Virus record (IMG/VR): IMGVR_UViG_2568526312_000010
From: a virus
Taxonomy: Duplodnaviria; Heunggongvirae; Uroviricota; Caudoviricetes
Reading direction: 5' to 3' (one strand)
Length of the DNA: 64,000 nucleotides
Numbering within the stretch: the first letter of the stretch is position 1; each line of letters opens with the position of its first letter. Positions 7,003 through 62,305 of the stretch are shown here, piece after piece. The notes under the pieces were generated by a model. The model was not told the origin of the DNA. It did no database searches and worked only from the letters and a program-made list of their open reading frames with translations. A program made the translations under genes and the position numbers.

Positions 7003-7476
7003 TCACGGTATACACTGGGTACGGATATATTCCTGTGCTCCTTCCAGTTGCTTCTGCATTGCCATCAGCCGTTCTCTGAGGATGAAATAATCCCGTTCAG
7101 CGGCTTCTGCCAGTCGGGGACCGGTTGCATTATCCACGCCGGAGGTGATGGGGGCTTTACGCAAGGAGCCTGGACAGTTGGCGTTGATGCGCAGGCGCTT
7201 ACGACCAGCGGCAACATCAGCACGCAGAGTTTCATTTTCAGCTCTCGCATCAGCTAATTCCCTCGAGTATCTGGCATCAAGTGCAGCAACATCACGCTGG
7301 CGCTGCTGCATATCAGTAATGGTTGCATTTGCCAGCTCCAGCTCACTGACTTTTTTATCGCGCTGCTCTTTGTAGGTTATGGCGTTATCGCGGTAATGAT
7401 TCAGCCCCAGACTAAGCGCACCACAGACCACCAGCAGAATAACGGTAAACGCGGAAAGCATTCGGTTTATGCTCAC
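7003..7476 (-). CDS. Rz: Rz i-spanin
   Basis: 157 aa with N-terminal TM segment and coiled-coil body, last gene of lysis cassette; contains Rz1 in +1 frame. Confidence 0.8.
   Translation of the reverse strand: MSINRMLSAFTVILLVVCGALSLGLNHYRDNAITYKEQRDKKVSELELANATITDMQQRQRDVAALDARYSRELADARAENETLRADVAAGRKRLRINANCPGSLRKAPITSGVDNATGPRLAEAAERDYFILRERLMAMQKQLEGAQEYIRTQCIP
7065..7250 (-). CDS. Rz1: Rz1 o-spanin lipoprotein (embedded in Rz)
   Basis: [15 protein letters not shown] lipobox then proline-rich PPSPPAW; nested inside Rz. Confidence 0.7.
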   Translation of the reverse strand: MRELKMKLCVLMLPLVVSACASTPTVQAPCVKPPSPPAWIMQPVPDWQKPLNGIISSSENG

Positions 7477-7618
7477 CCCACCAGCCCTGCCGAAGTCAAC
7501 GCCATCCAGGCCATGGAAAGAAAAAGAGCAACCAGCATTAGTGAAAATGAAATGCCGACAAGTACACAGAGGCTCTTCACCAGCGTTATGAGTTTATCTG
7601 ATATCATTAGCCACCCCA

Positions 7619-8188
7619 TCAATCCGCCTTTGTTATTTTCCCTTTGCCTGTATCAGCCAGGACAAAATCAATCAGCATATTCGCTTCATTTACCAGCGTA
7701 CGGATTTTTGATACATGCGCGGCTTTAACCTGTTTCCACTCATTCAGCCCGGTAGCAAACACACTGGCAATGTTTTTATCCCGTTTCATGTCAGCACAAG
7801 CCTGGTTGAGTTCTTCCATCACGCTCATTTTACGGGGATTAACGACAAAACCCTTCGTCCAGTACTCGTAAAGAACATCGTCGCACTCTTCCTGATACCG
7901 GATGACCTTATCGCGGATTTCGGGTTTTACTTTGTTGGGATTAATGGTTTGTAGCCAGCCGGCAAGTTTTCGAAGTGGCATGGACACCATATTGCGTTGT
8001 TTCCCATCCTCAGCAACCATAACGATTTCCGTTATAGTTGACGCAAAACGCTGTCTTAACTTAGCCAACTGTGATTGCCAGGCCAGCCCCATCCCCGCAA
8101 CGACAGGTTTCATGGGAACGTATGGTTCGCCATTATGGTTAACTACATAAAGAGAGTTGCCGTGAAACGGCACGGCCATCATATTCAT
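7619..8188 (-). CDS. antirepressor-like protein (Bro-N / KilA-C-like)
   Basis: 189 aa between endolysin and Rz; N-terminal AVPFHGNSLYVVNHNGEPYVPMKPV resembles Bro-N; has its own 270-bp upstream region. Confidence 0.5.
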   Translation of the reverse strand: MNMMAVPFHGNSLYVVNHNGEPYVPMKPVVAGMGLAWQSQLAKLRQRFASTITEIVMVAEDGKQRNMVSMPLRKLAGWLQTINPNKVKPEIRDKVIRYQEECDDVLYEYWTKGFVVNPRKMSVMEELNQACADMKRDKNIASVFATGLNEWKQVKAAHVSKIRTLVNEANMLIDFVLADTGKGKITKAD

Positions 8189-8297
8189 CGGTTATTTCCT
8201 TTTAGTGATGAACCTTGTCTCACAGGAATCCAGCCCACAGAAAGGCACCGACAGCCAAACCGGTATCCTCAAGGGTCATCCTGAAAGGTTCTGTGTT

Positions 8298-8319
8298 GTG
8301 AGATGCGCGTGAGATGCGC
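8298..8319 (-). repeat. tandem 11-bp direct repeat GTGAGATGCGC x2 upstream of antirepressor gene
   Basis: exact tandem duplication about 110 bp upstream of the ant-like start; possible operator. Confidence 0.5.
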
Positions 8320-8458
8320 AGAAATGACAAAGGCATCATTACGGTGCCTGAGTGTTAAACAACTGTTTTGACTTTATTCACTTACATTTTGCCAATTTGC
8401 AGGATTTCGTGTTATCCGTCCATGTAAGCAAACCTCATTTTTCAGCAAAATATTCTGC

Positions 8459-8992
8459 TTATCTGTCGATTCCCCAGCACGCCAGCGCGCTCTCCTGGTC
8501 ACGACGGGATACCTGACCGTAACAGTTATTTGAGCGAATACGGCAGTCCCTGCCACCGTCCTTAATCCACCAGCGAATCGCTTCGCAGGCACCTTTTCGA
8601 TCTCCTGCATTAATCCGTCTGTAAAACGTCGACGGGAAACACTTACCGGGGCCAATGTTGTACGGACAGAATGACGCGATCCCCGCTTTCTGGGGTTCGG
8701 TCAGCGGCACTCTGATGTTTTTCTCCACCCATGCCAGCGCCTTATCACGCTCAATGGCGTTAACCCGGTCGCATTTTTCCTTCGACAGCTTCATGCCAGG
8801 AATAACAGGCTTACCATCCCCCCGGGTGGCTCCACGGCAGATGGTCCAGATACCCGCACCATCACGGTATGCTGTGGTGTGGTTACCTTCCTTTTCATCC
8901 AGAAACTGGTCGAGGATTTCAGGCGCAGACGCCCCTGCACCAATCAGCGCCAGAACGGCAGCCGACAGGCCGTATCTGATTTTTGCGTTCAT
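8459..8992 (-). CDS. R: SAR endolysin (phage lysozyme, T4-lysozyme-like fold)
   Basis: 177 aa; weakly hydrophobic N-terminal segment YGLSAAVLALIGAGA then E..D..T catalytic spacing (EGNHTTAYRDGAGIWTICRG). Confidence 0.85.
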   Translation of the reverse strand: MNAKIRYGLSAAVLALIGAGASAPEILDQFLDEKEGNHTTAYRDGAGIWTICRGATRGDGKPVIPGMKLSKEKCDRVNAIERDKALAWVEKNIRVPLTEPQKAGIASFCPYNIGPGKCFPSTFYRRINAGDRKGACEAIRWWIKDGGRDCRIRSNNCYGQVSRRDQESALACWGIDR

Positions 8993-9042
8993 GGATATTT
9001 ATCAGGGTTTATCGATTTCAAATCCCTGGATATGTTAAGTCT

Positions 9043-9390
9043 TCAGGCCAGCGGTGGAGTCTTCAGAGAACCCGTAATTATTCCCGGTAGTTTTCCTCTG
9101 TAGGTTATCAACACATCCTGCGCCTCTAAAATTACGGGACGCTTTTCCGGTAACGGACCATCCCCTTCACATAACCCGGCAGCAACATCCATGAAAAACT
9201 GCTTCGCCTGCTTTTTCGCCTCAGCTTCGTAAAACTCCAGCGTGGCACCTTCAGTACGGTCAAGACTAATCGCCACATCTGGCAACAACAGTGACGGATA
9301 CCCACCAATTTCCGGTGCCACAGTAACAGTAATCTTATCCGGGTAATTATTTATCCCTTTAACAACCAGTTCGTATTTTTTCTTCATCAC
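9043..9390 (-). CDS. hypothetical protein within lysis cassette
   Basis: 115-aa ORF between holin and endolysin, identical in both prophages. Confidence 0.45.
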   Translation of the reverse strand: MMKKKYELVVKGINNYPDKITVTVAPEIGGYPSLLLPDVAISLDRTEGATLEFYEAEAKKQAKQFFMDVAAGLCEGDGPLPEKRPVILEAQDVLITYRGKLPGIITGSLKTPPLA

Positions 9391-9391
9391 T

Positions 9392-9598
9392 TTACTCTCC
9401 CCGCGCCGCCTTACGCCGGTCTTCTTTAATCTTGAAATACAGGTTCGTCAGATATGTCAGCAGCCCAAACAGCAGACTCCCCAGCACGCCTATCGCCACC
9501 CACTGGGACGGAGAGACTTTGTCCAGCAGCTGCAGTAACCAGTATCCCGTCCCCACCGCTGACGTGGTGTATGACACACCCGTTGTGATTTTTTCCAT
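9392..9598 (-). CDS. S: class II holin / pinholin (phage 21 S-like)
   Basis: 68 aa, two TM segments and RKAARGE tail, close to recalled S21 sequence. Confidence 0.85.
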
Positions 9599-9854
9599 CT
9601 GATGTATGTCTCCGTCACCGCCGACAGAAAATGAAAGTAAAGAAAAACAAAAAAGCCGCCAGTGTCACCCACTGACGGCCAACGCCGGGAGCCGTGATTA
9701 TGGCATTCAGGCTCTGCTAAAAATGCCAGATAACATTCCGGCCACCCCCTGATTCAGGTTATAAATGACACAATATCTTGACAACATCCGTCACTGTCTG
9801 TCAGAAAATGTACTGCCATATAGAAGCAACATGTGAAGTACATCTATCCTTTTG

Positions 9855-9897
9855 AGCCAGCACCTCTCCACCGAAAGTCAGTGCTGGCTGTTTTTTT
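9855..9897 (+). terminator. rho-independent terminator on plus strand (antisense to late operon)
   Basis: AGCCAGCAC...GTGCTGGCT stem followed by T7 on the plus strand only. Confidence 0.5.
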
Positions 9898-10005
9898 CCT
9901 TAATAAAGCATCTGTAACTGAAACAATCCGCATATTGATAATATATTGACAGGCATCATTGCTGTCTGTGAAAAATAAGTCTCTACAAACATATAAGGCC
10001 TTTTA

Positions 10006-10045
10006 GCCAGCGTCTTCTTTCAGGTCAGTCGCTGGCTCTTTTTTT
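10006..10045 (+). terminator. second plus-strand rho-independent terminator abutting the nanS-p stop
   Basis: AGCCAGCG...CGCTGGCT stem followed by T7 on the plus strand. Confidence 0.5.
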
Positions 10046-10046
10046 A

Positions 10047-11897
10047 TTATGCTGCCGGTGCATTTATCTCCAGCACCAGACTTTCTATCTCAACGCCATA
10101 CGCTGCATTTTTTGTAACATCCGTCAGCGTCAGCGCATTCAGTCCCAGTGTCAGACTGTCTTTTATAACCTGGAATGCCGGGCCAGCCACTCCATTCAGT
10201 TTCGGAGTAACCGTGGCACTGCCGGCGGTGAACACCAGCTCCAGCGTCTGCCAGTCGTTACCGTAATCGCCGAACTCCCCCAGCTTCGTGTTTCCGGCTT
10301 TCCTGTGATGCATCAGATTCACTCTGCCGTCAGTGGTCTGAGTAAAGTACGACATCAGGAACGGATTACCGGTACCCGTCATCGCCACACCATCAGGAAC
10401 GGGAGCATCCGTATACAGATAAATCCCCAGCCCGAACTGATTGTTGGTCAGCGCGCCTGACAGGCGGAACTTACAGGTCAGTCTGCCGCCCTGTGTCAGC
10501 AGGGTAATTGCGTCATCCACCGGATGCGTCAGGGACCAGGTTTTATTGCTCTGCCTGGTGATCTTAAATACACCATCTGACAACTGAATTCCGCCATCCT
10601 TAATGCTCCAGCCCTGCGCAGCAGCCTCTCCGGCTGCCGGCAGCAGGGAGATTGTGCGAACGGACGTATCTGCAGACGGACCCGATGGCGTGTTGCCGCC
10701 GGGCGAGGGTTTGATTTCCGGTGCCTTACCACTGATGAAGGCTGAGGTGCGCCCGGCTGCGTTCAGAATAGCGGTTGCCAGACGCTCCGGAATAATGCTC
10801 CTGCGCGCCCATGAACTGAAATGTGTCGGGCGGTTTGATGATACCTGGTTTCCATTCGTTCTCGATGCCGCACCGTAATATCCTGATGCCGGAATATCCG
10901 GATCTTCTGCCGGCGCGTTAGTGGCGGTATTGACGCCGTTACCGTCTGTCATGAAGGGCACAAAATAAACGCCCTCACTCTCCCTGTTTTTATACCCGCC
11001 GTACACGGTGTCGTACTGGGTAGCGTATGTATTTTTCCAGTAATACGTCGTGTCACCACAAATCCACGGCACATCTGCAGCACTGCCACCATGGCACTGC
11101 GCGTTAAACACGGAGAGGTCAGCACGAAACTGTGCCAGCATGGCTGTAAACAGCGCAGGTTGCTGTGCGTGGGTGGCGGCGCTCATGTCAAACTCTCCCT
11201 GCATCCAGCAGACGGCCAGCAGAACGTTTTTGGGATTTTTCTGCAATGCCGCTTTTGTGCGGGAAATCAGATCCTGATATAACGGCTTGCCCACCCCCCA
11301 GCGTGCCGAATCCTGGCTGGCCCCCGTGGACTCGCTGAATGTCCCCTCCGCGCCCTGGGTAAATGCCGAACCACCACGACAGCATGGTACCAGCAGGATC
11401 CCCGCGTTATTCGGGATATACGGGAGCAGTTTTTTGGCAATATGTAACCCCTGGCCGACACAGCCGTACTGCCCTTTGCTCAGGTCTGCCTTCGGATGAT
11501 TCAGCGTACTCATATCCTGCACATCATGCAGGCAGTGGTCGGCCGGAATAATATCGTTATATCTGCAGGCAGCCCCACCCGGCGTCACTGTACTGCGGCG
11601 CGCCAGCTGTTTAATGCGCGGATCCGGAGCATCGTATGAATCCGGCAGCGGAAGCCCTTCACCGTAAGCCATGGCATTGGACTGCCCGGCCAGTACGATG
11701 ACGTAGTACCAATCCGGCTCAGTTGCACCACTGACCACCACATCACCTTCTGCTGTAATCGCCTGCATCAGGGTATAAGGGGTTATGGCCACCGGACTAC
11801 CAAACGGCTGCCAGCCCTCTTTCAGTTTGTGTGTCAGCTTTTCCGCAAGGTCTGACGGCGACGCCGCCCTGACAACATCATAATGTTTAATCGACAT
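10047..11897 (-). CDS. nanS: prophage sialate O-acetylesterase NanS-p (DUF1737 N-terminal domain plus SGNH-type esterase)
   Basis: 616 aa; GQSNAMAYG esterase motif; position upstream of the holin as in Stx-type phages. Confidence 0.8.
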   Translation of the reverse strand: MSIKHYDVVRAASPSDLAEKLTHKLKEGWQPFGSPVAITPYTLMQAITAEGDVVVSGATEPDWYYVIVLAGQSNAMAYGEGLPLPDSYDAPDPRIKQLARRSTVTPGGAACRYNDIIPADHCLHDVQDMSTLNHPKADLSKGQYGCVGQGLHIAKKLLPYIPNNAGILLVPCCRGGSAFTQGAEGTFSESTGASQDSARWGVGKPLYQDLISRTKAALQKNPKNVLLAVCWMQGEFDMSAATHAQQPALFTAMLAQFRADLSVFNAQCHGGSAADVPWICGDTTYYWKNTYATQYDTVYGGYKNRESEGVYFVPFMTDGNGVNTATNAPAEDPDIPASGYYGAASRTNGNQVSSNRPTHFSSWARRSIIPERLATAILNAAGRTSAFISGKAPEIKPSPGGNTPSGPSADTSVRTISLLPAAGEAAAQGWSIKDGGIQLSDGVFKITRQSNKTWSLTHPVDDAITLLTQGGRLTCKFRLSGALTNNQFGLGIYLYTDAPVPDGVAMTGTGNPFLMSYFTQTTDGRVNLMHHRKAGNTKLGEFGDYGNDWQTLELVFTAGSATVTPKLNGVAGPAFQVIKDSLTLGLNALTLTDVTKNAAYGVEIESLVLEINAPAA

Positions 11898-12374
11898 CGA
11901 ATTTCTCCCGTGTACAGGAACAGAGTTAAAAAGCCGGAACCGGAATCAAATCACAGGATGACCATCTGCCAGTGGCTGGTCGTAAAAAAAAGCCGCGCCA
12001 TGCGCAGCCGGAAATAAAGGGATAACGATGATAGTTTGAGAAAAACAGAAACAACACTTTTGTGGCAAAGCATGGTGCCGGGTGCCTCCCGGTGAATTCA
12101 GTATCAGCACCTGAATCCGCGATTATCCCATATACCTGGTTGCTGATCGCCCCTCCGCACAGGGGGATTCACCATGCAGAAGTGTTTTTAATAAACAGCA
12201 AACAAAAAAATCAAGCATTATGCAGGCTGTTTCTTTTTATCACCGGCCACAGCAATACCACAATGCCGCAGACCAGCACCCCATCCGCCAGCACCGACAT
12301 GATTCTGCTGGTGAAATCCACCATCACCACCAGAAACAGCAGGAGTGCAGCCACAGCCAGGCGCAGTTTTACCG

Positions 12375-12806
12375 TCACAGGTGATTCTCCAGACGAAGAC
12401 CCAGAACACCGGCAATCTCTTCCAGCACCTTGCGCTCTTCCGGCTCAATTTCGCCGTCTGCCTCCGCAATGGCCACCGCCACATCCAGCACATCTTCCGC
12501 TTCACGCGTATCGTGTTTCACATCCTCAATCTCACGTAACGCCGCACGACGACCAGTTTTAAAGTTCGTATCCAGCTGACCGATAATGGTTGCGCTAATC
12601 GCATTAATTTCTGACGTAAACGCGGACAGCGCAGGCTGATTACGCAGTACCTGTTCGATCTTCGCTTTCTCGGATGCCTCACATTCACCATCTGCACAGG
12701 CCACCAGGTATGCGGCGTTAATCACCACCTGTGCCAGATCGCGTTTTTCAAACTTTTTAATTTCCGTTGCCGCTCTGCGGGTTTTCTTTTTGAAGATTCC
12801 AAACAT
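12375..12806 (-). CDS. TerB-like (tellurite-resistance-like) protein
   Basis: ACADGECEASEKAKIEQVL...AIAEADGEIEPEERKVLEEIAGVLG pattern; start taken at ATG 12806 with AAGGA RBS. Confidence 0.65.
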   Translation of the reverse strand: MFGIFKKKTRRAATEIKKFEKRDLAQVVINAAYLVACADGECEASEKAKIEQVLRNQPALSAFTSEINAISATIIGQLDTNFKTGRRAALREIEDVKHDTREAEDVLDVAVAIAEADGEIEPEERKVLEEIAGVLGLRLENHL

Positions 12807-12936
12807 CGTGACGTTCCTTTGGGTGGGTGAGCCAACGCCCGGGAGCGATCTGCCCACAGAGAAAGTCACACTGACCACTCCGTAAGCTCACCCCCGAAAG
12901 GCTCTGTGGTTGGTATGCGCCGGGCGTGGCGCAGAT

Positions 12937-12962
12937 ACAAAAAAGGCCCGCCGAAGCGAGCC
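12937..12962 (-). terminator. rho-independent terminator downstream of tRNA cluster
   Basis: minus strand GGCTCGC-TTCG-GCGGGCC hairpin followed by T6. Confidence 0.55.
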
Positions 12963-12975
12963 TGGAAAATAAGTG

Positions 12976-13052
12976 TGGCGCGTTGTAGTGGAGTCGAACC
13001 ACTGACCGATTGCTTAGAAGGCAATTGCTCTGTCCGGCTGAGCTAACAACGC
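12976..13052 (-). tRNA. tRNA-Arg (anticodon TCT)
   Basis: hand-folded cloverleaf with perfect 7-bp acceptor stem, CTTCTAA anticodon loop, TTCGACT T-loop, CCA end. Confidence 0.8.
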
Positions 13053-13065
13053 AGAATACCGATAA

Positions 13066-13145
13066 TGGACCGCCATCGGGGACCCGGCCCCGCACCAACA
13101 ACCCTGTTATGGTGTCGTCTGCTCTTCCTGATAAGCTAATGGCGG
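13066..13145 (-). pseudogene. degenerate tRNA-like remnant (position of tRNA-Arg(TCG) in prophage 2)
   Basis: acceptor-stem halves conserved but interior replaced; no canonical T-loop or anticodon stem. Confidence 0.4.
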
Positions 13146-13152
13146 TTTGTGA

Positions 13153-13228
13153 TGGTGGCCCTTGCTGGATTTGAACCAGCGACCTGGCGATTATGAGTCG
13201 CTCGCTCTCACCACTGAGCTAAAGGGCC
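13153..13228 (-). tRNA. tRNA-Ile2-like (anticodon CAT)
   Basis: GGCCCTTTAGCTCAGTGGTGAGAGCG...CTCATAATCGC...GGTTCAAATCC...GGGCCACCA, resembles recalled ileX-type tRNA. Confidence 0.8.
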
Positions 13229-13256
13229 GAGCCAAAAAATAATAATCAGATGAAAA

Positions 13257-17371: not shown

Positions 17372-17527
17372 TTACTTCTCAGATTCGTAGTCTACGAAGA
17401 CAGCGACCTCCGTCTGACCGGTTCGGATTCGCACCTCGCAGAGGTCTTTCCTCGTTACCAGTGCCGTCACTATGACGGTTAAACAGATGACGATCAGGGC
17501 GATTAACATCGCCTTTTGCTGCTTCAT
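17372..17527 (-). CDS. hok: Hok/Gef-family membrane toxin (HokD/RelF-like)
   Basis: MKQQKAMLIALIVICLTVIVTALVTRKDLCEVRIRTGQTEVAVF matches recalled Hok family; RBS AAGGAG upstream. Confidence 0.8.
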   Translation of the reverse strand: MKQQKAMLIALIVICLTVIVTALVTRKDLCEVRIRTGQTEVAVFVDYESEK

Positions 17528-17817
17528 AGCCTGCTTCTCCTTGCCTTTCGGCACGTAAGAGGCTAACCTACATGTGTTCAGCATGGATTGAGCCTCAGAT
17601 TAATGTTAAGCGTCTTGCAGGACGCGTAATGTTAACTGGGGCTTTTCTCTATCTGCCGTTGGTGTTCATGCCCGAGGCAGATAGCCTCAAGCACCCGCAG
17701 CAATTCTACTTAACTATCCTTTTCCCGCAAACCGTTTTTATCCCCAGCGGCAAATCGAATACACCACCAGCGCCACCGCCATCGCAATTCCTACCGTTGT
17801 GAATGCTTCAGGCCAGG

Positions 17818-21880: not shown

Positions 21881-22306
21881 TCAATGCACGACAACAGCAT
21901 TACCAGGCTGACCCCCACTGTTAGTCAGGGTGCCCCAGGCGATCGCCGCTGCGACAAAATCATCCACATCTTTCACCAGCCGATCCCTCCGTTCGACGAT
22001 CTCACGGTAATATTCAGAGCTGTGACTGCGCATACGGGCCACCAGCAGAGGCGGCATTGCCTTTTCGATCGCCGGTAACAGAGCCTGCATTTTTTCAACT
22101 GCATCAGGGGTGTCTTTCTCTATCCAGCGGAAAATTTTCTGGGTATTGCGAGCCAGGGCTTCCGGATGGCTGTCGTCGTACAGTTCAGGAAACGTCATAC
22201 CCAACTCAAAATAAGCCTGGGTTATTCCAGCTGCCGGAACTTTTTCGCCATCAGGACGCGCCCAGGCATTCATCGCCATGCGGATGTGTTCATGCTTGAT
22301 TTTCAT
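21881..22306 (-). CDS. YdaT-like protein in the cII position
   Basis: internal start MKIKHEHIRMAMN...; family from memory of Rac ydaT, not certain. Confidence 0.45.
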   Translation of the reverse strand: MKIKHEHIRMAMNAWARPDGEKVPAAGITQAYFELGMTFPELYDDSHPEALARNTQKIFRWIEKDTPDAVEKMQALLPAIEKAMPPLLVARMRSHSSEYYREIVERRDRLVKDVDDFVAAAIAWGTLTNSGGQPGNAVVVH

Positions 22307-22532
22307 GAATCCCCCCTTGGTTAGAAGGCGGATTATGATCAGAATCGGGAATGACAACCGTCGGTATGTGTAACTCATATTTGAGCGCCCCGGCAGTGAC
22401 TGCCTGAATTAGCAACGCCCATTTCCACGGAACGTCTTCCCCCCACATGCTGACTGTGGTTTTTGACGTTCCTAGAGCGGCGGCTGTTTTAACAACTCCG
22501 CCAAAATAGCCTAATACTTCTGATTTTTTCAT
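22290..22532 (-). CDS. Cro-like repressor (DicC-like)
   Basis: VLGYFGGVVKTAAALGTSKTTVSMW...GALKYE resembles recalled DicC; divergent from the cI-like gene. Confidence 0.55.
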   Translation of the reverse strand: MKKSEVLGYFGGVVKTAAALGTSKTTVSMWGEDVPWKWALLIQAVTAGALKYELHIPTVVIPDSDHNPPSNQGGIHENQA

Positions 22533-22623
22533 GAGTCGCTCCATAAAACTGAACGCCAAAAGTTTAATAATCAAAACCAAAGAAAGTCAAGAAACAAAAC
22601 CATCTGTGTTTTAAAATCAAAAC
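22533..22623. promoter_or_regulatory. cro/cI divergent promoter-operator region
   Basis: two similar motifs TTTAATAATCAAAAC and TTTAAAATCAAAAC between the divergent starts. Confidence 0.45.
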
Positions 22624-23262
22624 ATGAACAAGCAAACAATATCTGAACGCATAACCCAACGTATGCATGCGCTAAACTTGAAAGGCAAAGACCTTGTCAA
22701 TGCCACTGGCGCATCAAAAGGCTCCGTAAGTCAATGGATGAACGGTGGAGGAGCGCCGTCCTCGCGTTACATAAGTTCACTGGCAAAGATATTGAAAGTA
22801 AACGAAAATTGGCTTCTTAATGGAGGAGAGTTAAATACAGGTGATTCGCTTGATCTATCTTTACCGCCGATAAAAACGGTTCCGCTACTATCACTTCAGC
22901 AGGCAGCAAGCTGGAGTGATTATATGAAAAATTCCTCAATAACCTCTTGTGTGCAGCTTGTCGGAGAAATCCCGGCCAATACCTTTGCTGTTGTTCTAGA
23001 GAGTGACAGTATGTCGACATCTGGTGGTGGAGTTTCCATCCCAAATGGTTCAACAGTTTTTGTTGATCCCGATCGAATCGTACAACCAGGAAATATTGTC
23101 CTTGCCTTACCCAAAGGGACCACAACGCCTGTCATTCGCAAACTGGAGATAGAAGGGCCGGATATTCTTTTAGTCCCCACGAATCCTCGCTACCCTTCAA
23201 TTATGCTGGATGATCTATCTTGCATATTGGGAGTATGCTTTAAAATTCAACAAGATATTTAA
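22624..23262 (+). CDS. CI-like repressor (HTH_XRE plus LexA-like S24 peptidase domain)
   Basis: N-terminal HTH (ISERITQRMHALNLKGKDLVNATGASKGSVSQWMNG); C-terminal DSM...IRKL serine/lysine dyad. Confidence 0.85.
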   Translation: MNKQTISERITQRMHALNLKGKDLVNATGASKGSVSQWMNGGGAPSSRYISSLAKILKVNENWLLNGGELNTGDSLDLSLPPIKTVPLLSLQQAASWSDYMKNSSITSCVQLVGEIPANTFAVVLESDSMSTSGGGVSIPNGSTVFVDPDRIVQPGNIVLALPKGTTTPVIRKLEIEGPDILLVPTNPRYPSIMLDDLSCILGVCFKIQQDI

Positions 23263-23325: not shown

Positions 23326-23375
23326 AAATGTTTTGATAAAAAAACATTGACCTTAAATGTTCGTTTTTCTAAACT
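23326..23375 (+). promoter_or_regulatory. candidate early-left promoter with overlapping inverted repeat
   Basis: TTGACC (23346) and TAAACT (23370) with 18-bp spacer; AAAATGTTTT..AAAACATT inverted repeat overlaps the -35. Confidence 0.35.
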
Positions 23376-23554
23376 TCATTCATTCCCTCACCCCGCCCCA
23401 CAGAATGCAGGGCAATACTTCGAGTTACCAGGCAGTGGTCAGGGGTTAAGTAGCCAGCCCGAGGCGTAAGAACATGACGGCAGGGTTCAACTTTAATAAC
23501 TATGCAGCAGGTTTTTGTTCCGCTACCCCGGCGTTAAGGGGAAATGAGGTCAAC

Positions 23555-23707
23555 ATGGATACGCTCAATCTTGGCAACAACGAATCTCTGGTATGTGGCG
23601 TGTTCCCCAACCAGGACGGTACGTTCACCGCGATGACGTATACCAAAAGCAAAACGTTTAAAACTGAAGCTGGCGCGCGTCGCTGGTTAGCCAGAAACAC
23701 TGACTGA
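23555..23707 (+). CDS. small protein (about 50 aa), possibly YdfA/DUF1391-like
   Basis: internal start MDTLNLGNNE with GAGG RBS; stop overlaps next start (TGATGA). Confidence 0.35.
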   Translation: MDTLNLGNNESLVCGVFPNQDGTFTAMTYTKSKTFKTEAGARRWLARNTD

Positions 23708-24357
23708 TGAGGTTGACGATGGAATTTAAAGATTTACCTCCTTCAATCCAGGAGATTGCAGCACACACACTTCGTCATCGTCTGAACGAACTTGAATTGG
23801 AATCGGTAACGAAAAAAGACACTGATAATATGGCTCGTAATGTGCGCGATGCGTTTACCGGATTGTATTTCTGTGCGTCTATAAATAAACACGACTCAGA
23901 GAGTGTGGCAAATAAAATTGCAGAAACGACAGCGCAAAACATCAATACGAAACCAACGGAAGAAGAAATTGATCAGTTTGCTCATGATGCTGGTTTAAAA
24001 AACAAGAAAGAAAAATCGCCATATGCGGGGAACATGTTTGTTTATGACAATCTCATCAGAATTCGTGGCGAAATTCCGGCGGAATACCTGGCAAGAGTCC
24101 ATCAGGCATTGCTTAAAAATTTGGAAACAGAATTATTTGATGGCAACACTAACGGTTTCTTCATGGTATCAGGCCTTGAGAAAGACTGGGATGCAGAAAA
24201 ACGCTGGAATGTTGCTACATGGTTATTCAGTAACAGAGCCGCTGCACTGGAAGCTTCGGCATGTATTTGCGGCCTGTTCTTAACAGACCACAAATATAAT
24301 CTGGATGTGTACAGTTATATTTACGCTGAACACGGTCCACTCTGGATTGACTGGTAA
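23707..24357 (+). CDS. hypothetical 216-aa protein, no recognisable family
   Basis: ORF directly downstream of cI on the same strand; AT-richer than neighbours; alternative start at 23719. Confidence 0.5.
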   Translation: MRLTMEFKDLPPSIQEIAAHTLRHRLNELELESVTKKDTDNMARNVRDAFTGLYFCASINKHDSESVANKIAETTAQNINTKPTEEEIDQFAHDAGLKNKKEKSPYAGNMFVYDNLIRIRGEIPAEYLARVHQALLKNLETELFDGNTNGFFMVSGLEKDWDAEKRWNVATWLFSNRAAALEASACICGLFLTDHKYNLDVYSYIYAEHGPLWIDW

Positions 24358-24567
24358 TTATAAGGAAACACCAGCAGGGCCGCGGCGACCAACAGAACGA
24401 TTAAAATCAATAATGCCATTATAAAGGACATTATTTAATTTATCGTCGAATGCTGATTCTGTGAGCCTCAACTCTGAATGAGTTTTTAATAACCCTGATT
24501 GCCTGAGTTGATTTACCAGGCATTCAATCTGTTTTTCAATAAGCGGATTTCTTTTTTTGTTTGGCAT
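24358..24567 (-). CDS. hypothetical 69-aa protein, convergent with the 216-aa gene
   Basis: GGAGG 5 nt upstream of ATG (MPNKKRNPLIEKQIECLV...); stop codons of the two genes abut at 24357/24358. Confidence 0.4.
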   Translation of the reverse strand: MPNKKRNPLIEKQIECLVNQLRQSGLLKTHSELRLTESAFDDKLNNVLYNGIIDFNRSVGRRGPAGVSL

Positions 24568-24904
24568 TTTATCCTCCATTGAGGTTCTGGGTTAAAAATG
24601 GAGACCAACACGCTGTCACGTGTGGTCGTGCGCCGGACACGGATAAGAATCCGGTACTGACAGTTTACTGAAAGGATATTTCCCTGAAAAGTCAGTGCAT
24701 AACGCGAAAGCGTACGGCGAAGCTCTTTCCCTTAGAAGGCTTGTCGTTAGATTTCTTCGAACGTGCGCTTCCGGTTGTGGCACTCCGCGAAATGGCGCGG
24801 CGGTAAGTATGGCGGGGTTATTCCTTCCCCATTGAGGACACCGGGTTGTCAGGTTGACCATACGCTTAAGTGACAACCCCGCTGCAACGCCCTCTGTTAT
24901 CAAT

Positions 24905-24962
24905 TTTCTGGTGACGTTTGGCGGTATCAGTTTTACTCCGTGGCTGCTCTGCCGCCCTTTTT
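24905..24962 (+). ncRNA. dicF: DicF small RNA
   Basis: tttctggtgacgtttggcggtatcagttttactccgtggctgctctgccgcccttttt matches recalled DicF with one mismatch; terminator hairpin plus U-tract; upstream of dicB. Confidence 0.8.
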
Positions 24963-25131
24963 AAAGTGAATTTTGTGATGCGGTGAATGCGGCTAAGCGC
25001 ACGCGGAACAGTTAAAACCAAAAACAGTGTTATGGGTGGATTCTCTGTATCCGGCGTTAATTGTTAACTGGTTAACGTCACCTGGAGGCACCAGGCACTG
25101 CATCACAAAATTCATTGTTGAGGACGCGATA

Positions 25132-25320
25132 ATGGAAACGTTATTACCAAACGTTAATACGTCTGAAGGTTGTTTTGATATTGGTGTTCTGCTCAGTAAC
25201 CGGGAGTTTACTGAAGATGCCATTAACATGAGGAAATATGAGCCTTATCTGCTCAATGATAATTCCATACTTTCCCGAATTGCTCTTCTTGAACTTGGTA
25301 TTTTCGGAGAACGTCAATGA
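25132..25320 (+). CDS. dicB: cell-division inhibitor DicB-like
   Basis: METLLPNVNTSEGCFDIGV...TEDAIN matches recalled DicB N-terminus; GAGGA RBS; follows dicF. Confidence 0.7.
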   Translation: METLLPNVNTSEGCFDIGVLLSNREFTEDAINMRKYEPYLLNDNSILSRIALLELGIFGERQ

Positions 25321-25505
25321 CTTCAGCATTTGCACTGATGATGACGGTTTTTCTTATAACGGGTGAATCACAGAATGTGATTACCGGAATTTATGCCAGT
25401 AAAGAATCCTGCCTCCAGGCAAGAGACGAGCAAAAAATTTCTGGTGAATGCCTCCCGGTAAAAAAAGTATCGCTGTACCTGAATAACGAAACACCGGCTG
25501 GATAA
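25317..25505 (+). CDS. YdfD-like small protein with hydrophobic N-terminus
   Basis: 62 aa, MTSAFALMMTVFLITG signal-like segment, two Cys; start overlaps dicB stop (ATGA). Confidence 0.5.
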   Translation: MTSAFALMMTVFLITGESQNVITGIYASKESCLQARDEQKISGECLPVKKVSLYLNNETPAG

Positions 25506-25597
25506 CCCTCCAGCCATATTAACACCATACCAACGGATTAAAAATGCCAGCAATGGCAGGGATTTGTTCACCCTTAAATCTGTAATGAGGTTTATCA

Positions 25598-26842
25598 ATG
25601 AGCACTGATAAAGAAGAATTTGCGCTATATTGCGAAGCAAAAAATGACAAAGTCAGAAAACGTCTGGGAATTAAAGGTGGTTTTTACTGGACTACAGCAA
25701 AAAAATTATCTGTTGCCATCTCCCGCTGCATTACCGCAATGGATGACAACGATTATGATGAAGACGACTTTAAAAAACCCGTTCGCGTCCATTTACCCGT
25801 TGTGAATGACCTTCCACCTGAAGGCGTGTTTGATACCGAATTCTGCAACCGATACGAAAAAGGCGGGGAAGATGGCATTACAATGGTATTTATCGCGCCC
25901 TCTCCCTCCGTGCAGGAGAAACCAGCCAGTACTGACAATACCAACGTCAACGGCGAAGACATGACGGAGATTGAGGAGAATATGCTCCTGCCGGTTTCTG
26001 GTCAGGAGCTGCCCATTCGCTGGCTTGCGCAACACGGCAGCGAAAAACCAGTAACGCACGTTGCACGGGAAGAACTTCAGGCATTACATATAGCACGGGC
26101 GGAAGAACTGCCGGCTGTTACTGCCCTGGCCATTTCTCACAAAACAAAGCTGCTCGACCCGCTGGAGATTCGCGACCTTCACAAACTGGTACGCGACACT
26201 GACAAAGTTTTCCCTAATCCCGGTAATTCAGACCTGGGACTGATAACTGCTTTTTTCGAGGCATACCTGGACGCTGACTACACTGATCGGGGTCTGCTGA
26301 CAAAAGAGTGGATGAAAGGAAATCGTGTTTCGCGTATCACCCGTACGGCTTCCGGTGCAAATGCCGGTGGCGGGAACAAAACCGATCGCAATCCGAATTT
26401 AGTACACACCTTCGATACGCTGGATGTGGAGATTGCAGCAGCCACACTTCCGATGGATTTTAATATTTATGAAATTCCGGGCAGCGTTTATCGTCGCGCA
26501 AAAGAAATCGTCCTGAAAAGAGAAAGTCCGTTCAAAGAATGGTCCGCAGCACTTCGCGCAACCCCGGGTATTCTGGACTATTCCCGCGCCGCTATTTTTG
26601 CACTTATCCGGAGCGCTCACCCTGAGTTTTATCACTACCCGGGACGCCTTCAGGGGTATATCAACGCCTACTTAACGGAGACTGATCACGAGAACCCCAG
26701 CAAGGAAACTCTCACTGCTGCACGACATACACCGGAAAAAGATATCCTGGAAGAAGTTAACCGCGAACTGTCTGCTAAGCAGGAAACAGAAGAAGAAAAT
26801 GATGAAGAAAAACCGCAACCATCTTGCGCAATGGCAGAATGA
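25598..26842 (+). CDS. hypothetical 414-aa protein (YdfE position), acidic C-terminus
   Basis: long ORF with no recognisable motif; between ydfD-like gene and truncated integrase. Confidence 0.5.
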   Translation: MSTDKEEFALYCEAKNDKVRKRLGIKGGFYWTTAKKLSVAISRCITAMDDNDYDEDDFKKPVRVHLPVVNDLPPEGVFDTEFCNRYEKGGEDGITMVFIAPSPSVQEKPASTDNTNVNGEDMTEIEENMLLPVSGQELPIRWLAQHGSEKPVTHVAREELQALHIARAEELPAVTALAISHKTKLLDPLEIRDLHKLVRDTDKVFPNPGNSDLGLITAFFEAYLDADYTDRGLLTKEWMKGNRVSRITRTASGANAGGGNKTDRNPNLVHTFDTLDVEIAAATLPMDFNIYEIPGSVYRRAKEIVLKRESPFKEWSAALRATPGILDYSRAAIFALIRSAHPEFYHYPGRLQGYINAYLTETDHENPSKETLTAARHTPEKDILEEVNRELSAKQETEEENDEEKPQPSCAMAE

Positions 26843-27375
26843 TAATCAGAAGAAATCTGGCAAAAGACCGTTTTACAGTACCAAAAACACAGGCGGGAAC
26901 CAATCGTGTGATTCACCTTATTAAGCCCGCAATCGACGCTCTCCGGAGTCAGATGGCACTAACGAGACTGAGCAAAGAGCATATCATCGATGTTCACCTC
27001 AGAGAATTCGGCAGAACAGAGAAACAAAAATGTACCTTTGTTTTTCAACCTGAAGTGTCAGCGAAAGTAAAAAATTATGGCGACCATTTTACCGTTGACT
27101 CAATAAGGCAGATGTGGGACGCAGCGGTAAAGCGTGCCGGAATCCGCCATCGCAAATCGTATCAGTCGAGACACACTTATGCCTGCTGGTCGTTAACAGC
27201 AGGAGCTAACCCGGCATTCATTGCAAACCAGATGGGCCATGCAGATGCGCAAATGGTGTTTCAGGTGTACGGGAAATGGATGTCAGAAAATAATAATGCG
27301 CAGGTAACGCTGTTAAATACACAGTTAAGCGAGTTTGCCCCAACCATGCCCCATAACGAAGCGATGAAAAGTTAA
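26824..27375 (+). pseudogene. tyrosine integrase, C-terminal catalytic fragment only
   Basis: 183 aa with H-x-x-R and Y (SRHTYACWSL...GHADAQMVFQVYGKWM) but no N-terminal domain or box-I Arg region. Confidence 0.7.
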
Positions 27376-27447: not shown

Positions 27448-27795
27448 GTGGGTTTTTGGGTGTTTTCTAAGTTTTTTCAGATGGTTGTATTTTTTCTAAA
27501 AATCCCTAATCTCGATTTTGCTGTTTATTTGAGGCCTTTTTATGTCCCATATATGCCCCACAGATACCCCGCAGCCAAAATCAACAAAATGCCAAAAGGT
27601 TCTGTTCCTGCCCTGCAACAAGAAATGCTGCGACGTGTCAGTAAACGTTATGACGATGTAGAAGTGATCATCAAATCCACCAGCAACGATGGCCTTTCAG
27701 TTACTCGCACCGCCGATAAAGATTCTGCAAAAACTTTTGTTCAGGAGACGCTGAAAGATACCTGGGAGTCTGCTGACGAGTGGTTTGTTCGCTAA
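27448..27795 (+). CDS. hypothetical small protein at the prophage junction
   Basis: likely internal start [14 protein letters not shown]...; not recognised. Confidence 0.3.
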
Positions 27796-27844: not shown

Positions 27845-28665
27845 TCAGAAGTGACCGTCCAGGCGGTCACCGAACTCGATAATAAAGCGGCTCATTGCCA
27901 TACGCCAGTCCCGCAGTGGCATCGTCCATTTCTGTGAAGCCGCCTGGATTGCCAGCCACACGACCTTTTTCACTGAGTCATCCGTCGGGAACACCTTGCG
28001 TTTTTTGATGGCATGCCGGATTACGCTGTTCAGCGACTCGATGGCGTTGGTTGTGTAGATGACTTTGCGGATATCTGCCGGGTAAGCGAAGAACATCGCC
28101 AGGTTGGTCCAGTTTGCCTGCCAGCTCCGGCTTATCTGCGGGTAGCGACTGTCCCAGGCGCTGGCGAACGCTTCCAGCGCCTGCTGGCCTGCTTCTTCTG
28201 TGGGGGCCTGGTAGATGGCTTTCAGGTCGCGGGTGACGGCTTTGTAGTCCTTCCAGGAAACGAACCGCAGGCTGTTGCGCACCATATGCACGATGCACAG
28301 CTGGATGCGGGCTTCCGGATACACCGTGTTGATAGCGTCCGGGAAGCCTTTCAGCCCGTCGACACAGGCTATGAGAATATCGTTCAGGCCGCGGTTTTTT
28401 AGTTCAGTCAGCACATTGAGCCAGAACTTCGCTCCCTCGTTTTCGGCCAGCCACATACCCAGTAACTCTTTCTGGCCTTCGATATTGATACCCAGTGCGA
28501 GGAATACGGATTTATTGATTACGCGACTGTCCTGCCGAACCTTCAGGACAATACAGTCAAGATAAACAATGGGATAGACCGCATCCAGTGGCCGGTTTTG
28601 CCATTCGACTACCTGCTCCATAACGGCATCGGTGACCTTCGATACCAGCGCCGGTGAGACATCAG
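27845..28665 (-). pseudogene. IS256-family transposase, C-terminal fragment
   Basis: mutator-type transposase body; reading frame continues from the N-terminal fragment at 31109-31503 once the nested IS is removed. Confidence 0.75.
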
Positions 28666-28757
28666 GTAAGCGTACAGCCTGAACCGTCTGGTCAGAATCT
28701 GACGAATTAGACAAAGTGGTGTCCACCAAATAAGTAGTGGGAACCAAAGTATCAGAT

Positions 28758-29138
28758 ATGCAGAAAAATGTGACTCCCGGCAGGCGAAAAGGCTGCCCTA
28801 ATTATCCTCCCGAATTTAAACAGCAGCTCGTTGCTGCCTCCTGTGAACCCGGGATATCCATCTCAAAACTTGCTCTTGAAAATGGCATTAACGCCAATCT
28901 GTTGTTCAAATGGCGACAACAATGGCGCGAGGGAAAGCTGCTATTACCTTCTTCAGAGAGCCCCCAGCTACTTCCTGTGACTCTCGATGCAGCTGCCGAA
29001 CAGCCAGAATCGCTCGCAGAGGACCCGGAAACCCTCAGTATCAGCTGTGAGGTAACGTTCCGGCACGGGACGCTCCGCTTCAATGGCAATGTCAGCGAAA
29101 AGCTCCTGACTCTGCTGATACAGGAACTGAAGCGATGA
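28758..29138 (+). CDS. IS66-family TnpA (orf1)
   Basis: first ORF of the three-gene IS66 unit. Confidence 0.7.
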   Translation: MQKNVTPGRRKGCPNYPPEFKQQLVAASCEPGISISKLALENGINANLLFKWRQQWREGKLLLPSSESPQLLPVTLDAAAEQPESLAEDPETLSISCEVTFRHGTLRFNGNVSEKLLTLLIQELKR

Positions 29139-29482
29139 TCCCGTTACCTTCCGGGACCAAAATTTGGCTGGTTGCCGGTATCACCGATATGAGAAATGGC
29201 TTCAACGGCCTGGCTGCGAAAGTACAAACGGCGCTGAAAGACGATCCCATGTCCGGCCATGTTTTCATTTTCCGGGGCCGCAGCGGCAGTCAGGTTAAAC
29301 TGCTGTGGTCCACCGGTGACGGACTGTGCCTCCTGACCAAACGGCTGGAGCGTGGGCGCTTCGCCTGGCCGTCAGCCCGTGATGGCAAAGTGTTCCTTAC
29401 GCAGGCGCAGCTGGCGATGCTGCTGGAAGGTATCGACTGGCGACAGCCTAAGCGGCTGCTGACCTCCCTGACCATGCTGTAA
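29135..29482 (+). CDS. IS66-family TnpB (orf2)
   Basis: 115 aa, overlapping start, typical middle ORF. Confidence 0.75.
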
Positions 29483-29531
29483 ATCTCTTTATCCTGGTTG
29501 TCACAGAATAAGCCCGGTAAAATACGGGCTT

Positions 29532-31070
29532 ATGAACGACATCTCTTCTGACGACATCTTCCTGCTGAAACAGCGCCTGGCCGAACAGGAAGCGCTGATC
29601 CACGCCCTGCAGGAAAAGCTGAGCAACCGGGAGCGCGAAATAGACCATCTGCAGGCGCAGCTGGATAAACTCCGCCGGATGAACTTCGGCAGTCGTTCCG
29701 AAAAAGTCTCCCGCCGTATCGCACAAATGGAAGCCGATCTGAACCGGCTTCAGAAAGAGAGCGATACGCTGACTGGTAGGGTGTATGACCCGGCAGTACA
29801 GCGTCCGTTGCGTCAGACCCGCACCCGTAAGCCGTTCCCTGAATCACTACCCCGTGACGAAAAGCGACTGTTGCCTGCGGCGCCGTGCTGCCCGAACTGC
29901 GGCGGTTCACTGAGCTATCTGGGCGAGGATACCGCCGAACAGCTGGAGTTGATGCGTAGCGCCTTCCGGGTTATCCGGACGGTACGGGAAAAACATGCCT
30001 GTACTCAGTGCGATGCCATCGTGCAGGCACCTGCACCTTCGCGGCCCATCGAGCGGGGTATCGCCGGACCGGGGCTGCTGGCCCGCGTGCTGACCTCGAA
30101 GTATGCAGAGCACACCCCGCTGTATCGCCAGTCAGAAATATACGGCCGGCAAGGTGTGGAGCTGAGGCGTTCACTGCTGTCGGGCTGGGTGGATGCATGC
30201 TGCCGGCTGCTGTCTCCGCTGGAAGAGGCGCTTCATGGCTATGTCATGACTGACGGCAAACTCCATGCCGATGATACCCCGGTCCAGGTACTGCTGCCGG
30301 GTAATAAGAAGACGAAGACCGGGCGGTTGTGGGCGTATGTTCGTGATGACCGCAATGCAGGGTCAGCGTTGGCACCTGCAGTGTGGTTCGCTTACAGCCC
30401 GGACAGAAAAGGCATCCATCCGCAGACTCATCTTGCCTGCTTCAGCGGTGTGCTGCAAGCGGATGCGTACGCCGGGTTCAACGAGCTGTATCGCAATGGT
30501 GGGATAACGGAAGCTGCCTGCTGGGCTCATGCCCGCCGAAAGATCCACGATGTGCACGTCCGCATCCCGTCAGCACTGACGGAAGAAGCCCTGGAGCAGA
30601 TCGGTCAGTTGTACGCCATAGAGGCGGATATAAGGGGAATGCCGGCAGAGCAGCGGCTTGCTGAACGTCAGCGAAAAACGAAACCGTTGTTGAAATCCCT
30701 GGAAAGCTGGTTGCGTGAAAAGATGAAGACCCTGTCGCGACACTCAGAGTTGGCGAAGGCGTTCGCGTACGCACTTAACCAGTGGCCGGCACTGACGTAC
30801 TATGCGAACGATGGCTGGGTGGAAATCGACAACAACATCGCTGAAAATGCCCTGCGGGCGGTCAGTCTGGGTCGTAAAAACTTCCTGTTCTTCGGCTCTG
30901 ATCATGGTGGTGAGCGGGGAGCGCTACTGTACAGCCTGATCGGGACGTGCAAACTGAATGACGTGGATCCAGAAAGCTACCTTCGCCATGTGCTTGGCGT
31001 CATAGCAGACTGGCCGGTCAACCGGGTCAGCGAACTGCTTCCGTGGCGCATAGCACTGCCAGCTGAATAA
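29532..31070 (+). CDS. IS66-family transposase TnpC (orf3)
   Basis: 512 aa with N-terminal coiled-coil/leucine zipper and Cys cluster (CCPNCGG...CTQC). Confidence 0.85.
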
Positions 31071-31108
31071 CACATCCCCGTCAATACGGCCCTCGCTGTA
31101 CGCTTACG

Positions 31109-31503
31109 ACATCAGCGTCATACAGCTCTTTAAACGCAGCCGCTATTTCGCGGGTTGTCAGGCCTTTGGCGTACAACGACAGGATCTGGTTATCCATCCC
31201 GGTGATCCGGGTCTGGTTTTTCTTCACAAGTTGCGGTTCAAAAGAGCCATCACGATCGCGCGGAGTGCGTAGTTCCAGGTGGCCATCACCGGTGATAACG
31301 GTCTTTGTGGAATAGCCATTGCGGGAGTTGGCACCCGGTTTAGGCTGGTTTTTATCGTAGCCCAGATGGTGGGACATTTCAGCGTTGAGAGCTGCCTCAA
31401 CGCTGATTTTCTTCAGCAGGCGATCGAACTGGCTGAGATCTTCAGGGGTTTTGAGATTTTTGGCCAGTTCGTTAGCCAGAGCCTGCAACTGTTTTTCGTC
31501 CAT
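31109..31503 (-). pseudogene. IS256-family transposase, N-terminal fragment
   Basis: KGLTTREIAAAFKELYDADV then ISEc8 end; continues in the 27845-28665 fragment. Confidence 0.75.
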
Positions 31504-31652
31504 AAATTAACCTGCTTTTGATGTTGGATTGAACATATCAAAATCAGGCAATTACACAAATCTATGTACAGGCTCCTCAGTAAATATCAATACGGTTCTG
31601 GCGAGCCGCTTACGATGCATGAGAATCACTAATAGTATGTAATTATTACATT

Positions 31653-56149: not shown

Positions 56150-56617
56150 TTAGTTCAGGCACTGAGTGCGGATATAGTCCTGTGCCCCTTCCAGCTGCTT
56201 CTGCATTGTCATCAACCGTTCTCTGAGGATGAAATAATCCCGTTCAGCGGTGTCTGCCAGTCGGGGGCCGGTTGCATTATCCACGCCGGAGGTGCCGGTG
56301 GCTTCACGCACGGTACCGGAGCAGGTGGCGTTGATCCGCAGGCGCTTACGACCAGCGGCAACATCAGCACGCAGAGTTTCATTTTCAGCTCTCGCATCGG
56401 CTAACTCCCTCGAGTATTTTGCATCGAGCGCAGCAACATCACGCTGGCGCACCTGCATGTCAGTAATGGTGGCATTCGCCTGTTCCAGCTCTCTGGCTTT
56501 TTTATCGCGCTGCGCTTTGTAGGTGAGCGCGTTGTCACGGTAATGGTTTGTTGCCAGCCACAGCGCACCATAGCCAACCGCCAGGACAATAATCACCACA
56601 CACAGAACACGGTTCAT
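56150..56617 (-). CDS. Rz: Rz i-spanin (diverged allele)
   Basis: 155 aa, about 85 percent identical to prophage 1 Rz. Confidence 0.8.
56212..56397 (-). CDS. Rz1: Rz1 o-spanin lipoprotein
   Basis: lipobox LVVSAC, proline-rich, nested in Rz. Confidence 0.7.
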
Positions 56618-56770
56618 CTCTCTTTCACCCCACCAGTCCCGATAACGTCAGGACTCGCCAGGCGGTGGAAAAGAAAATGGCAACCAGCATGACTAAAAAT
56701 GAAATGCCGACAAGTACACAGAGGCTCTTCACCAGCGTTATGAGTTTATCTGATATCATTAGCCACCCCA

Positions 56771-57340: not shown

Positions 57341-57610
57341 CGGTTATTTCCTTTTAGTGATGAACCTTGTCTCACAGGAATCCAGCCCACAGAAAGGCAC
57401 CGACAGCCAAACCGGTATCCTCAAGGGTCATCCTGAAAGGTTCTGTGTTGTGAGATGCGCGTGAGATGCGCAGAAATGACAAAGGCATCATTACGGTGCC
57501 TGAGTGTTAAACAACTGTTTTGACTTTATTCACTTACATTTTGCCAATTTGCAGGATTTCGTGTTATCCGTCCATGTAAGCAAACCTCATTTTTCAGCAA
57601 AATATTCTGC

Positions 57611-58144: not shown

Positions 58145-58194
58145 GGATATTTATCAGGGTTTATCGATTTCAAATCCCTGGATATGTTAAGTCT

Positions 58195-58542: not shown

Positions 58543-58543
58543 T

Positions 58544-58750
58544 TTACTCTCCCCGCGCCGCCTTACGCCGGTCTTCTTTAATCTTGAAATACAGGTTCGT
58601 CAGATATGTCAGCAGCCCAAACAGCAGACTCCCCAGCACGCCTATCGCCACCCACTGGGACGGAGAGACTTTGTCCAGCAGCTGCAGTAACCAGTATCCC
58701 GTCCCCACCGCTGACGTGGTGTATGACACACCCGTTGTGATTTTTTCCAT
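58544..58750 (-). CDS. S: pinholin S21-like (identical copy)
   Basis: identical translation to 9392..9598. Confidence 0.85.
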
Positions 58751-59197: not shown

Positions 59198-59198
59198 A

Positions 59199-62208: not shown

Positions 62209-62221
62209 AGAATACCGATAA

Positions 62222-62298: not shown

Positions 62299-62305
62299 TA
62301 TGTGA

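Follow-up and report, generated by a model that had tools for sequence, protein, structure and literature searches.

The early-left operon of a defective Escherichia coli O157:H7 lambdoid prophage very probably carries a copy of the known dicBF-ydfD module

Lambda Kil and Rac KilR are division inhibitors encoded in the lambdoid pL operon, between the immunity region and the recombination and int genes. They share this niche, and the block of host division upon derepression, with the dicBF module, from which they differ in being single proteins of unrelated sequence that act on FtsZ/ZipA without MinC; to our knowledge, they have no sRNA partner. The multiple dicF/dicBF copies of EHEC O157:H7 (strains Sakai, EDL933 and 86-24) have been treated by Balasubramanian et al. 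in 2016 and, reportedly, by Melson and Kendall in 2019. The closest described system is the dicBF operon of the K-12 Qin prophage (ydfABC-dicF-dicB-ydfD-ydfE-intQ), for which it has been shown that DicF represses ftsZ, that DicB acts through MinC and that derepression leads to filamentation (PMC5069750, PMC6832061, PMC10448788). Further roles have been described for the module, namely the ManYZ-dependent phage exclusion brought about by DicB and, according to a published review, the activation of pchA/LEE by DicF in EHEC. The same review gives four dicF copies for EHEC strains, and Balasubramanian et al. 2016 reported several dicBF loci, located in different prophages, for both Sakai and EDL933 (PMC5069750). 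DicF, DicB and YdfD are thus already characterised, and the multiplication of the module in EHEC prophages is published.

An earlier note had proposed a cell-division inhibition module composed of DicF, dicB and a ydfD-like gene at 24905-25505 of a 64,000-nt stretch of DNA (hereafter the window), positions that delimit the three elements exactly. We confirmed this observation, and the interpretation attached to it was supported with qualifications concerning the location of YdfD, the identity of the repressor and the added roles of the module. The locus is very probably a copy of the known dicBF-ydfD module that lies in the early-left operon of a defective O157:H7 lambdoid prophage and would work as it does in Qin. 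To the published picture, we add a candidate pL/operator arrangement with a cI-type repressor, a diverged dicB-ydfD cassette, a predicted 28-bp helix and the defectiveness of the prophage.

Gene order and sequence identity place the locus in a defective E. coli O157:H7 lambdoid prophage, of which it forms the early-left (pL-type) operon. The + strand carries, in this order, the repressor gene, the pL-like site with its operator, a ydfA-like gene, a 216-aa gene, the leader, DicF, dicB, the ydfD-like gene and the truncated recE and int genes (Table 1), while cro, replication genes, hok/sok, Q-region tRNAs, and lysis and head genes are found to the left of the module on the - strand. The 12-kb stretch around the module is 100% identical to O157:H7 chromosomes. 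Many O157:H7, O26 and O121 genomes carry a 1-kb segment of the locus at 100% identity, and this segment was found in some form in 4735 of the 5426 complete E. coli genomes.

Similar to Qin, the module shows the same gene order and the same orientation relative to the immunity region, a 4-nt ATGA overlap between dicB and ydfD, and a truncated recE-like gene with an int fragment at the same end, although the recE-like gene of the window is without IS2. Nucleotide homology to Qin is confined to four stretches, i.e. ydfA (88%), 24627-25236 (93%), a short piece after ydfD and the 3' end of int (91%); within the second of these, identity amounts to 93-99% in the leader and the dicF-dicB spacer, both of which are, here, strongly structured. 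The differences concern the immunity type, as the Qin repressor is the 135-aa DicA whereas the window encodes a 212-aa HTH+S24 protein of the cI type with different operator sequences; the ydfB/ydfC position, which is taken by the 216-aa gene and a convergent 73-aa gene; and a block covering the C-terminal half of DicB and YdfD, the whole proteins being 63% and 45% identical to their Qin counterparts. None of these differences takes the module outside the known kind. Compared to the EHEC O157:H7 dicF/dicBF copies, no difference is known. Since O157:H7 genomes match the window with 100% identity, and since the O157:H7 strain TR01 matches a 60-nt DicF query in 4 places, in agreement with the four published copies, the locus is almost certainly one of the published EHEC dicF copies.

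Table 1 Features of the immunity region and the early-left operon, with positions in the 64-kb window
Feature	Position	Strand	Evidence or remark
Cro-like regulator gene, transcribed away from the module, dicC analogue	22290..22532	-	Pfam P22_Cro, 57 bits, E=1.7e-15
Palindrome TGTTTT-N6-AAAACA, candidate OR operator	22607..22624	.	Perfect; in the cro/cI divergent region
cI-type repressor gene, 212 aa	22624..23262	+	Pfam HTH_3 and Peptidase_S24
Palindrome TGTTTT-N6-AAAACA, candidate OL operator	23329..23346	.	Perfect; abuts the -35 hexamer
Promoter-like site TTGACC-17-TAAACT, candidate pL, dicBp analogue	23347..23375	+	Consensus scan; downstream of the cI stop, upstream of the ydfA-like gene
ydfA-like DUF1391 gene	23474..23707	+	Pfam DUF1391, 102 bits; 88% nucleotide identity to K-12 ydfA; annotated start 23555
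216-aa gene, ydfB/ydfC position	23707..24357	+	PHROG 2151, full length; no Pfam match
73-aa gene, convergent with pL transcription	24358-24579	-	PHROG 4274; no Pfam/NCBIfam match
Structured untranslated leader	24600..24904	+	93% identical to K-12 from 24627; fold of 24600-25135, z=-5.1
DicF sRNA, G39 allele	24905..24957	+	53 nt; Rfam 75 bits; 52/53 identical to b1574
DicF terminator hairpin and T5 tract, forms the DicF 3' end	24920..24962	+	Stem 24920-24926 / 24950-24956, inner stem
Predicted long-range helix, 21+7 bp (28 bp)	24958-24985 paired with 25096-25124	+	Helix list of the minimum free energy fold
dicB, 62 aa	25132..25320	+	Pfam DicB, NCBIfam NF049927; internal start in ORF 25027-25320
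ydfD-like gene (DUF1482), 62 aa	25317..25505	+	Pfam DUF1482; start codon overlapping the dicB stop (ATGA)
N-terminal half of RecE (exonuclease VIII), truncated, K-12 ydfE counterpart	25598..26842	+	NCBIfam PRK09709, positions 1-409/877, below cutoff
C-terminal integrase fragment, intQ-like	26824..27375	+	Pfam Phage_integrase, partial; 91% nucleotide identity to the K-12 intQ 3' end

Several other features were observed in the surroundings. A promoter-like site at 24595-24566 (-) accompanies the 73-aa gene, which separates the 216-aa gene from the dicF leader. The same prophage holds a hok/sok type I toxin-antitoxin locus at 17372-17696 (-) in its nin-like region (Rfam sok, 113 bits, with a Hok/Gef family gene), and a DinI-like gene lies at ~27553-27795. 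The junction of the two prophages at 27845-32300 contains an IS256-family transposase gene split by ISEc8 (IS66-family), then the type III effector gene nleG7, and a second lambdoid prophage comes after this IS cluster and nleG7. The two tandem lambdoid prophages share a 6.2-kb near-repeat (7013-13229 and 56160-62382, 97.7%) with lysis genes, an STnc100 sRNA and tRNA genes; the first repeat has two tRNAs, Arg-tct and one with a CAT anticodon (Ile in RefSeq), and the second has three, the extra one being Arg-tcg at 62222-62298. Relative to strain 9000, the second prophage carries an inserted IS3-family element (IS1203/IS629 type) in its tail-gene region at 39464-40773, with an ALIL frameshifting pseudoknot at 39799-39915 inside the element.

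The sequence at 24905-24957 had been identified in the earlier note as DicF with one mismatch, ending in a terminator hairpin and a U-tract. An Rfam scan at gathering thresholds, which covered the whole 64-kb window, returned a full-length RF00039 match at 24906-24957 (+; model positions 1-52/52; 75.0 bits against a gathering score of 48; E=1e-14). Direct comparison with annotated K-12 dicF (b1574, 53 nt), for which the K-12 MG1655 Qin region served as reference, gave 52/53 identical bases with A39G, at window position 24943, as the sole mismatch; the identification was therefore accurate, and so was the description of the 3' end, where the hairpin is followed by TTTTT at 24958-24962. Both the minimum free energy and the centroid folds of DicF match the Rfam consensus pairs, with a single-stranded 5' region, the terminator stem-loop and an inner stem. 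U27 is the partner of position 39 both in the Rfam consensus and in the fold predicted here, so that A39G turns a U-A into a U-G pair and the inner stem is kept. The folding energy of DicF alone was unremarkable (z=-1.3 compared to shuffles), and its identification is consequently based on the covariance model and on sequence identity, not on stability. Terminator-like sites, among them the DicF terminator, numbered 11 compared to 5.3 expected. Chance is excluded by the Rfam E-value, by the Pfam and NCBIfam E-values (6e-37, 2e-33 and 3e-15) and by the 100% identity to hundreds of E. coli genomes. With the 60-nt DicF query, DicF was found in 3822 of 5426 genomes, at most 6 copies being present per genome, and the best match was at least 99% identical to the window allele in 492 records. 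Among the RefSeq O157-type genomes listed with an identical locus, no annotated feature lies under the DicF match, whereas K-12 has b1574.

The predicted duplex between DicF and ftsZ spans positions -29 to +25 of ftsZ and has the same energy (-38.5 kcal/mol) for the K-12 and the window alleles. Nucleotides 37-40 of DicF, where A39G falls, form an unpaired internal loop in this duplex. The ftsZ leader shows 100% identity in O157:H7; in 5388 of 5424 genomes, its identity is 99% or more. The predicted ftsZ-pairing potential of the G39 allele is unchanged. By analogy with K-12, we infer that DicF would accumulate from the window copy as a 53-nt Hfq-binding repressor of FtsZ. What the earlier note had said about DicF and ftsZ, DicB and MinC, and filamentation agrees with the published K-12 mechanisms, and the sequence features that these mechanisms require are kept here.

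In the K-12 leader, RNase III generates the 5' end of a 190-nt species and RNase E the 5' end of the 53-nt species (PMC10448788). Mapped by homology, the 5' end of the 190-nt species would be near 24768, inside another predicted hairpin, and the 93% identity of the leader suggests that DicF would be processed here, too, from a polycistronic transcript. The segment 24600-25135 folds far better than its shuffles. Its predicted long-range helix joins the U-tract of the DicF terminator and the bases following it to the dicB Shine-Dalgarno sequence GAGGA (25120-25124). A 72-nt DicF species has been described that owes its 3' end to RNase III acting on read-through transcripts (PMC5069750); its end would fall at ~24976, inside the predicted helix, which is likely an RNase III substrate. 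The dicF-dicB spacer has 172/174 bases in common with K-12, and one of the changes makes a U-G pair of the helix into C-G. By sequestering the Shine-Dalgarno sequence, the predicted helix could tie the translation of dicB to cleavage by RNase III. At the distal end of the operon, the longest transcript detected in K-12 ends after ydfD; in the window, a hairpin (GGCTGGA...TCCAGCC) at 25496-25516 overlaps the stop of the ydfD-like gene, with a terminator-like score on the - strand only.

The 62-aa DicB-like ORF that had been proposed downstream of DicF has the right length and passed both DicB cutoffs, matching Pfam PF05358 end to end (125.5 bits against a cutoff of 27) and NCBIfam NF049927 over positions 1-62/62 (114.2 against 100). 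Its ATG at 25132 is preceded by GAGGA, and its TGA stop lies at 25318-25320. This ATG was retained as the dicB start because it has its own GAGGA and because K-12 DicB starts at an in-phase internal ATG, as indicated by a reference cited in PMC8835842. The 97-aa ORF that begins with GTG at 25027 was ruled out as the reading of dicB, as the family models fit residues 1-62 from ATG 25132, and the minus-strand ORFs over the region (24866-25021, 24993-25229 and 25144-25335) had no support and were disregarded. The differences from K-12 DicB crowd in the C-terminal half. Of the first 15 residues (METLLPNVNTSEGCF compared to MKTLLPNVNTSEGCF), 14 are identical and the lone change affects residue 2. 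In K-12 DicB, the N-terminal ~14 residues are essential for activity and MinC binding, residue 2 is mutable but not deletable, and the last 8 residues are dispensable, while larger C-terminal deletions weaken activity without abolishing it (PMC4967827). The primers with which an O157:H7 study (PMC6915034) targeted dicB correspond exactly to the allele at 25132-25153 and 25298-25320, which means that the window allele has already been handled experimentally as 'dicB'. Based on its conserved N-terminus, the window DicB would plausibly inhibit division in a MinC-dependent manner.

Downstream of dicB, a translationally coupled 62-aa protein, secreted or located in the membrane, had been proposed. 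Its size and the ATGA overlap stood up, and it belongs to the YdfD family, with a full-length match to Pfam DUF1482 (PF07358; 56.3 bits against a cutoff of 25), a full-length match to PHROG 1092 and 45% identity to K-12 YdfD (b1576) over the full length; NCBIfam had no model matching the YdfD-like, the 216-aa or the 73-aa protein. The proposed location is unproven. That the protein is exported or membrane-anchored and acts in the envelope, and is not a cytoplasmic IspG inhibitor, is a minority reading that we consider unlikely: residues 2-15 (TSAFALMMTVFLIT) are hydrophobic and followed by G-E, as in a signal peptide or an anchor, and both cysteines are shared by the O157 and the K-12 proteins, but the hydrophobic N-terminus is short and uncharged, with no basic residue before it, and K-12 YdfD, a lysis protein, was placed by pull-down and FRET on cytoplasmic IspG, which it binds via its N-terminal domain (PMC8835842). 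Lysis on expression and IspG binding are published only for K-12 YdfD, and the window protein, as a homologue, may share both properties. An alternative explanation of another kind concerns the diverged cassette itself. Nucleotide homology to K-12 ends at dicB codon 35 (25236) and returns after the ydfD stop (25544), and the divergence of the 27 C-terminal codons of dicB and of ydfD from the K-12 alleles that were tested counts against the preferred reading of a module working as in Qin. Residues ~36-62 of DicB and the whole YdfD-like protein might then have a function or specificity unlike that in K-12, for example an altered partner or exclusion specificity, or a directly interacting toxin/antidote pair formed by the DicB C-terminus and YdfD. 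The overlap of the two genes would fit such a pair, as would the finding that co-expression of DicB prevents YdfD lysis in K-12; SulA, however, rescues YdfD lysis as well, which favours the division block over direct binding as the explanation (PMC8835842). Moreover, both proteins still fit their family models end to end, and the essential determinants of DicB are N-terminal, so that we regard a change of function or specificity as very improbable. The speculation that the DicB C-terminus neutralises its cognate YdfD directly, with the block co-evolving, and that, separately, the 28-bp helix gates dicB via RNase III, has a similarly slim chance of being right. If it were true, dicB-ydfD would be an allele-specific toxin/antidote cassette on top of its MinC function.

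Returning to the module as a working copy of the Qin type, its control probably differs from that of Qin. The Cro-like gene, which identical genomes list as a Cro/CI family regulator, and the gene of the HTH+S24 repressor are divergent, and a perfect palindrome occurs both at OR and at the pL-like promoter. The 212-aa repressor is 98% identical, over 100% of its length, to the 'repressor protein cI' of phages vB_EcoS-813R8 and 640R1, which also carry dicF-dicB; RefSeq annotates only its last 113 aa, as a 'LexA family protein'. The palindrome TGTTTT-N6-AAAACA has just two zero-mismatch copies in the 64 kb, i.e. the two sites in Table 1, and a degenerate related copy is present at 22561-22579. 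Copies with up to two mismatches numbered 6 compared to 3.5 by chance, which is not above chance, so that the case for operators comes from the two perfect copies and their positions. Likewise, the candidate pL matches the consensus at 9/12 positions, but the promoter scan of the region gave 7 sites compared to 8.6 expected from shuffles, and the site was called for its position and the adjoining operator. The two palindromes are read as putative OR and OL/pL of one immunity system, and the arrangement suggests that the module is likely repressed by the 212-aa cI-type protein and not by DicA. In an alignment, a serine of the repressor (in SDSM) corresponds to LexA S119 and UmuD S60, and a lysine is present in VIRKL. 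The segment QQAASW aligns to LexA VAAGEP, with A-A-S at LexA A84-G85 and no Gly. As the repressor is without a recognisable Ala-Gly cleavage site, SOS inducibility is uncertain.

At the other end of the operon, the N-terminal half of recE, annotated as a pseudogene, runs directly into the C-terminal fragment of the integrase gene, which lies close to the prophage's right end and carries the annotation of an incomplete pseudogene. From this junction, the sequence indicates a deletion that took the rest of recE, the genes of the recE-int interval and the front of int, and the prophage consequently cannot excise by its own means. Such losses of the C-terminal half of recE, the recE-int interval and the N-terminal part of int could also be taken to mean that the module is an inert remnant whose genes are intact but never expressed, with no contribution over and above that of the other dicF/dicB copies. 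Repression of the operon is expected, O157 genomes hold several redundant copies, and the convergent 73-aa gene that sits inside the operon could interfere with read-through, all of which is compatible with inertness. However, K-12 Qin is equally defective, and yet its copy is expressed during stationary phase and by a subpopulation of the cells (PMC10448788). Every ORF is intact and has a full-length HMM match, and the perfect conservation of the 1-kb segment across many O157:H7, O26 and O121 genomes also argues against inertness, as does the EHEC DicF phenotype, which came, according to the review, from published work on the four copies. We thus consider an inert remnant improbable.

In the lysogen, homology to K-12 Qin suggests that the repressor would hold the promoter off, and relief of the repressor would give a polycistronic transcript. 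Cuts that RNase III and RNase E make in the leader would then release the 53-nt DicF, with its 3' end set by the intrinsic terminator or, in read-through, by RNase III. Together with Hfq, DicF would pair with the ribosome-binding region of ftsZ and block FtsZ synthesis, and it may also activate pchA in EHEC. Read-through transcripts would yield DicB, which is expected to bind MinC and carry it to the septum via ZipA; there, DicB-MinC would block Z rings and cause filamentation, and phages that enter through ManYZ would be excluded. The translationally coupled YdfD-like protein would act as a lysis protein whose effect is countered by DicB.

Overall, the locus is useful mainly as annotation, since DicF is known from the literature yet missing from the RefSeq records of identical O157 genomes. 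As control is probably exerted by a cI-type repressor and not by DicA, the conditions under which the early-left operon is induced here may differ from those of K-12 Qin. Such a difference would bear on how DicF levels in EHEC, and thus pchA/LEE and stx2 regulation, are set.
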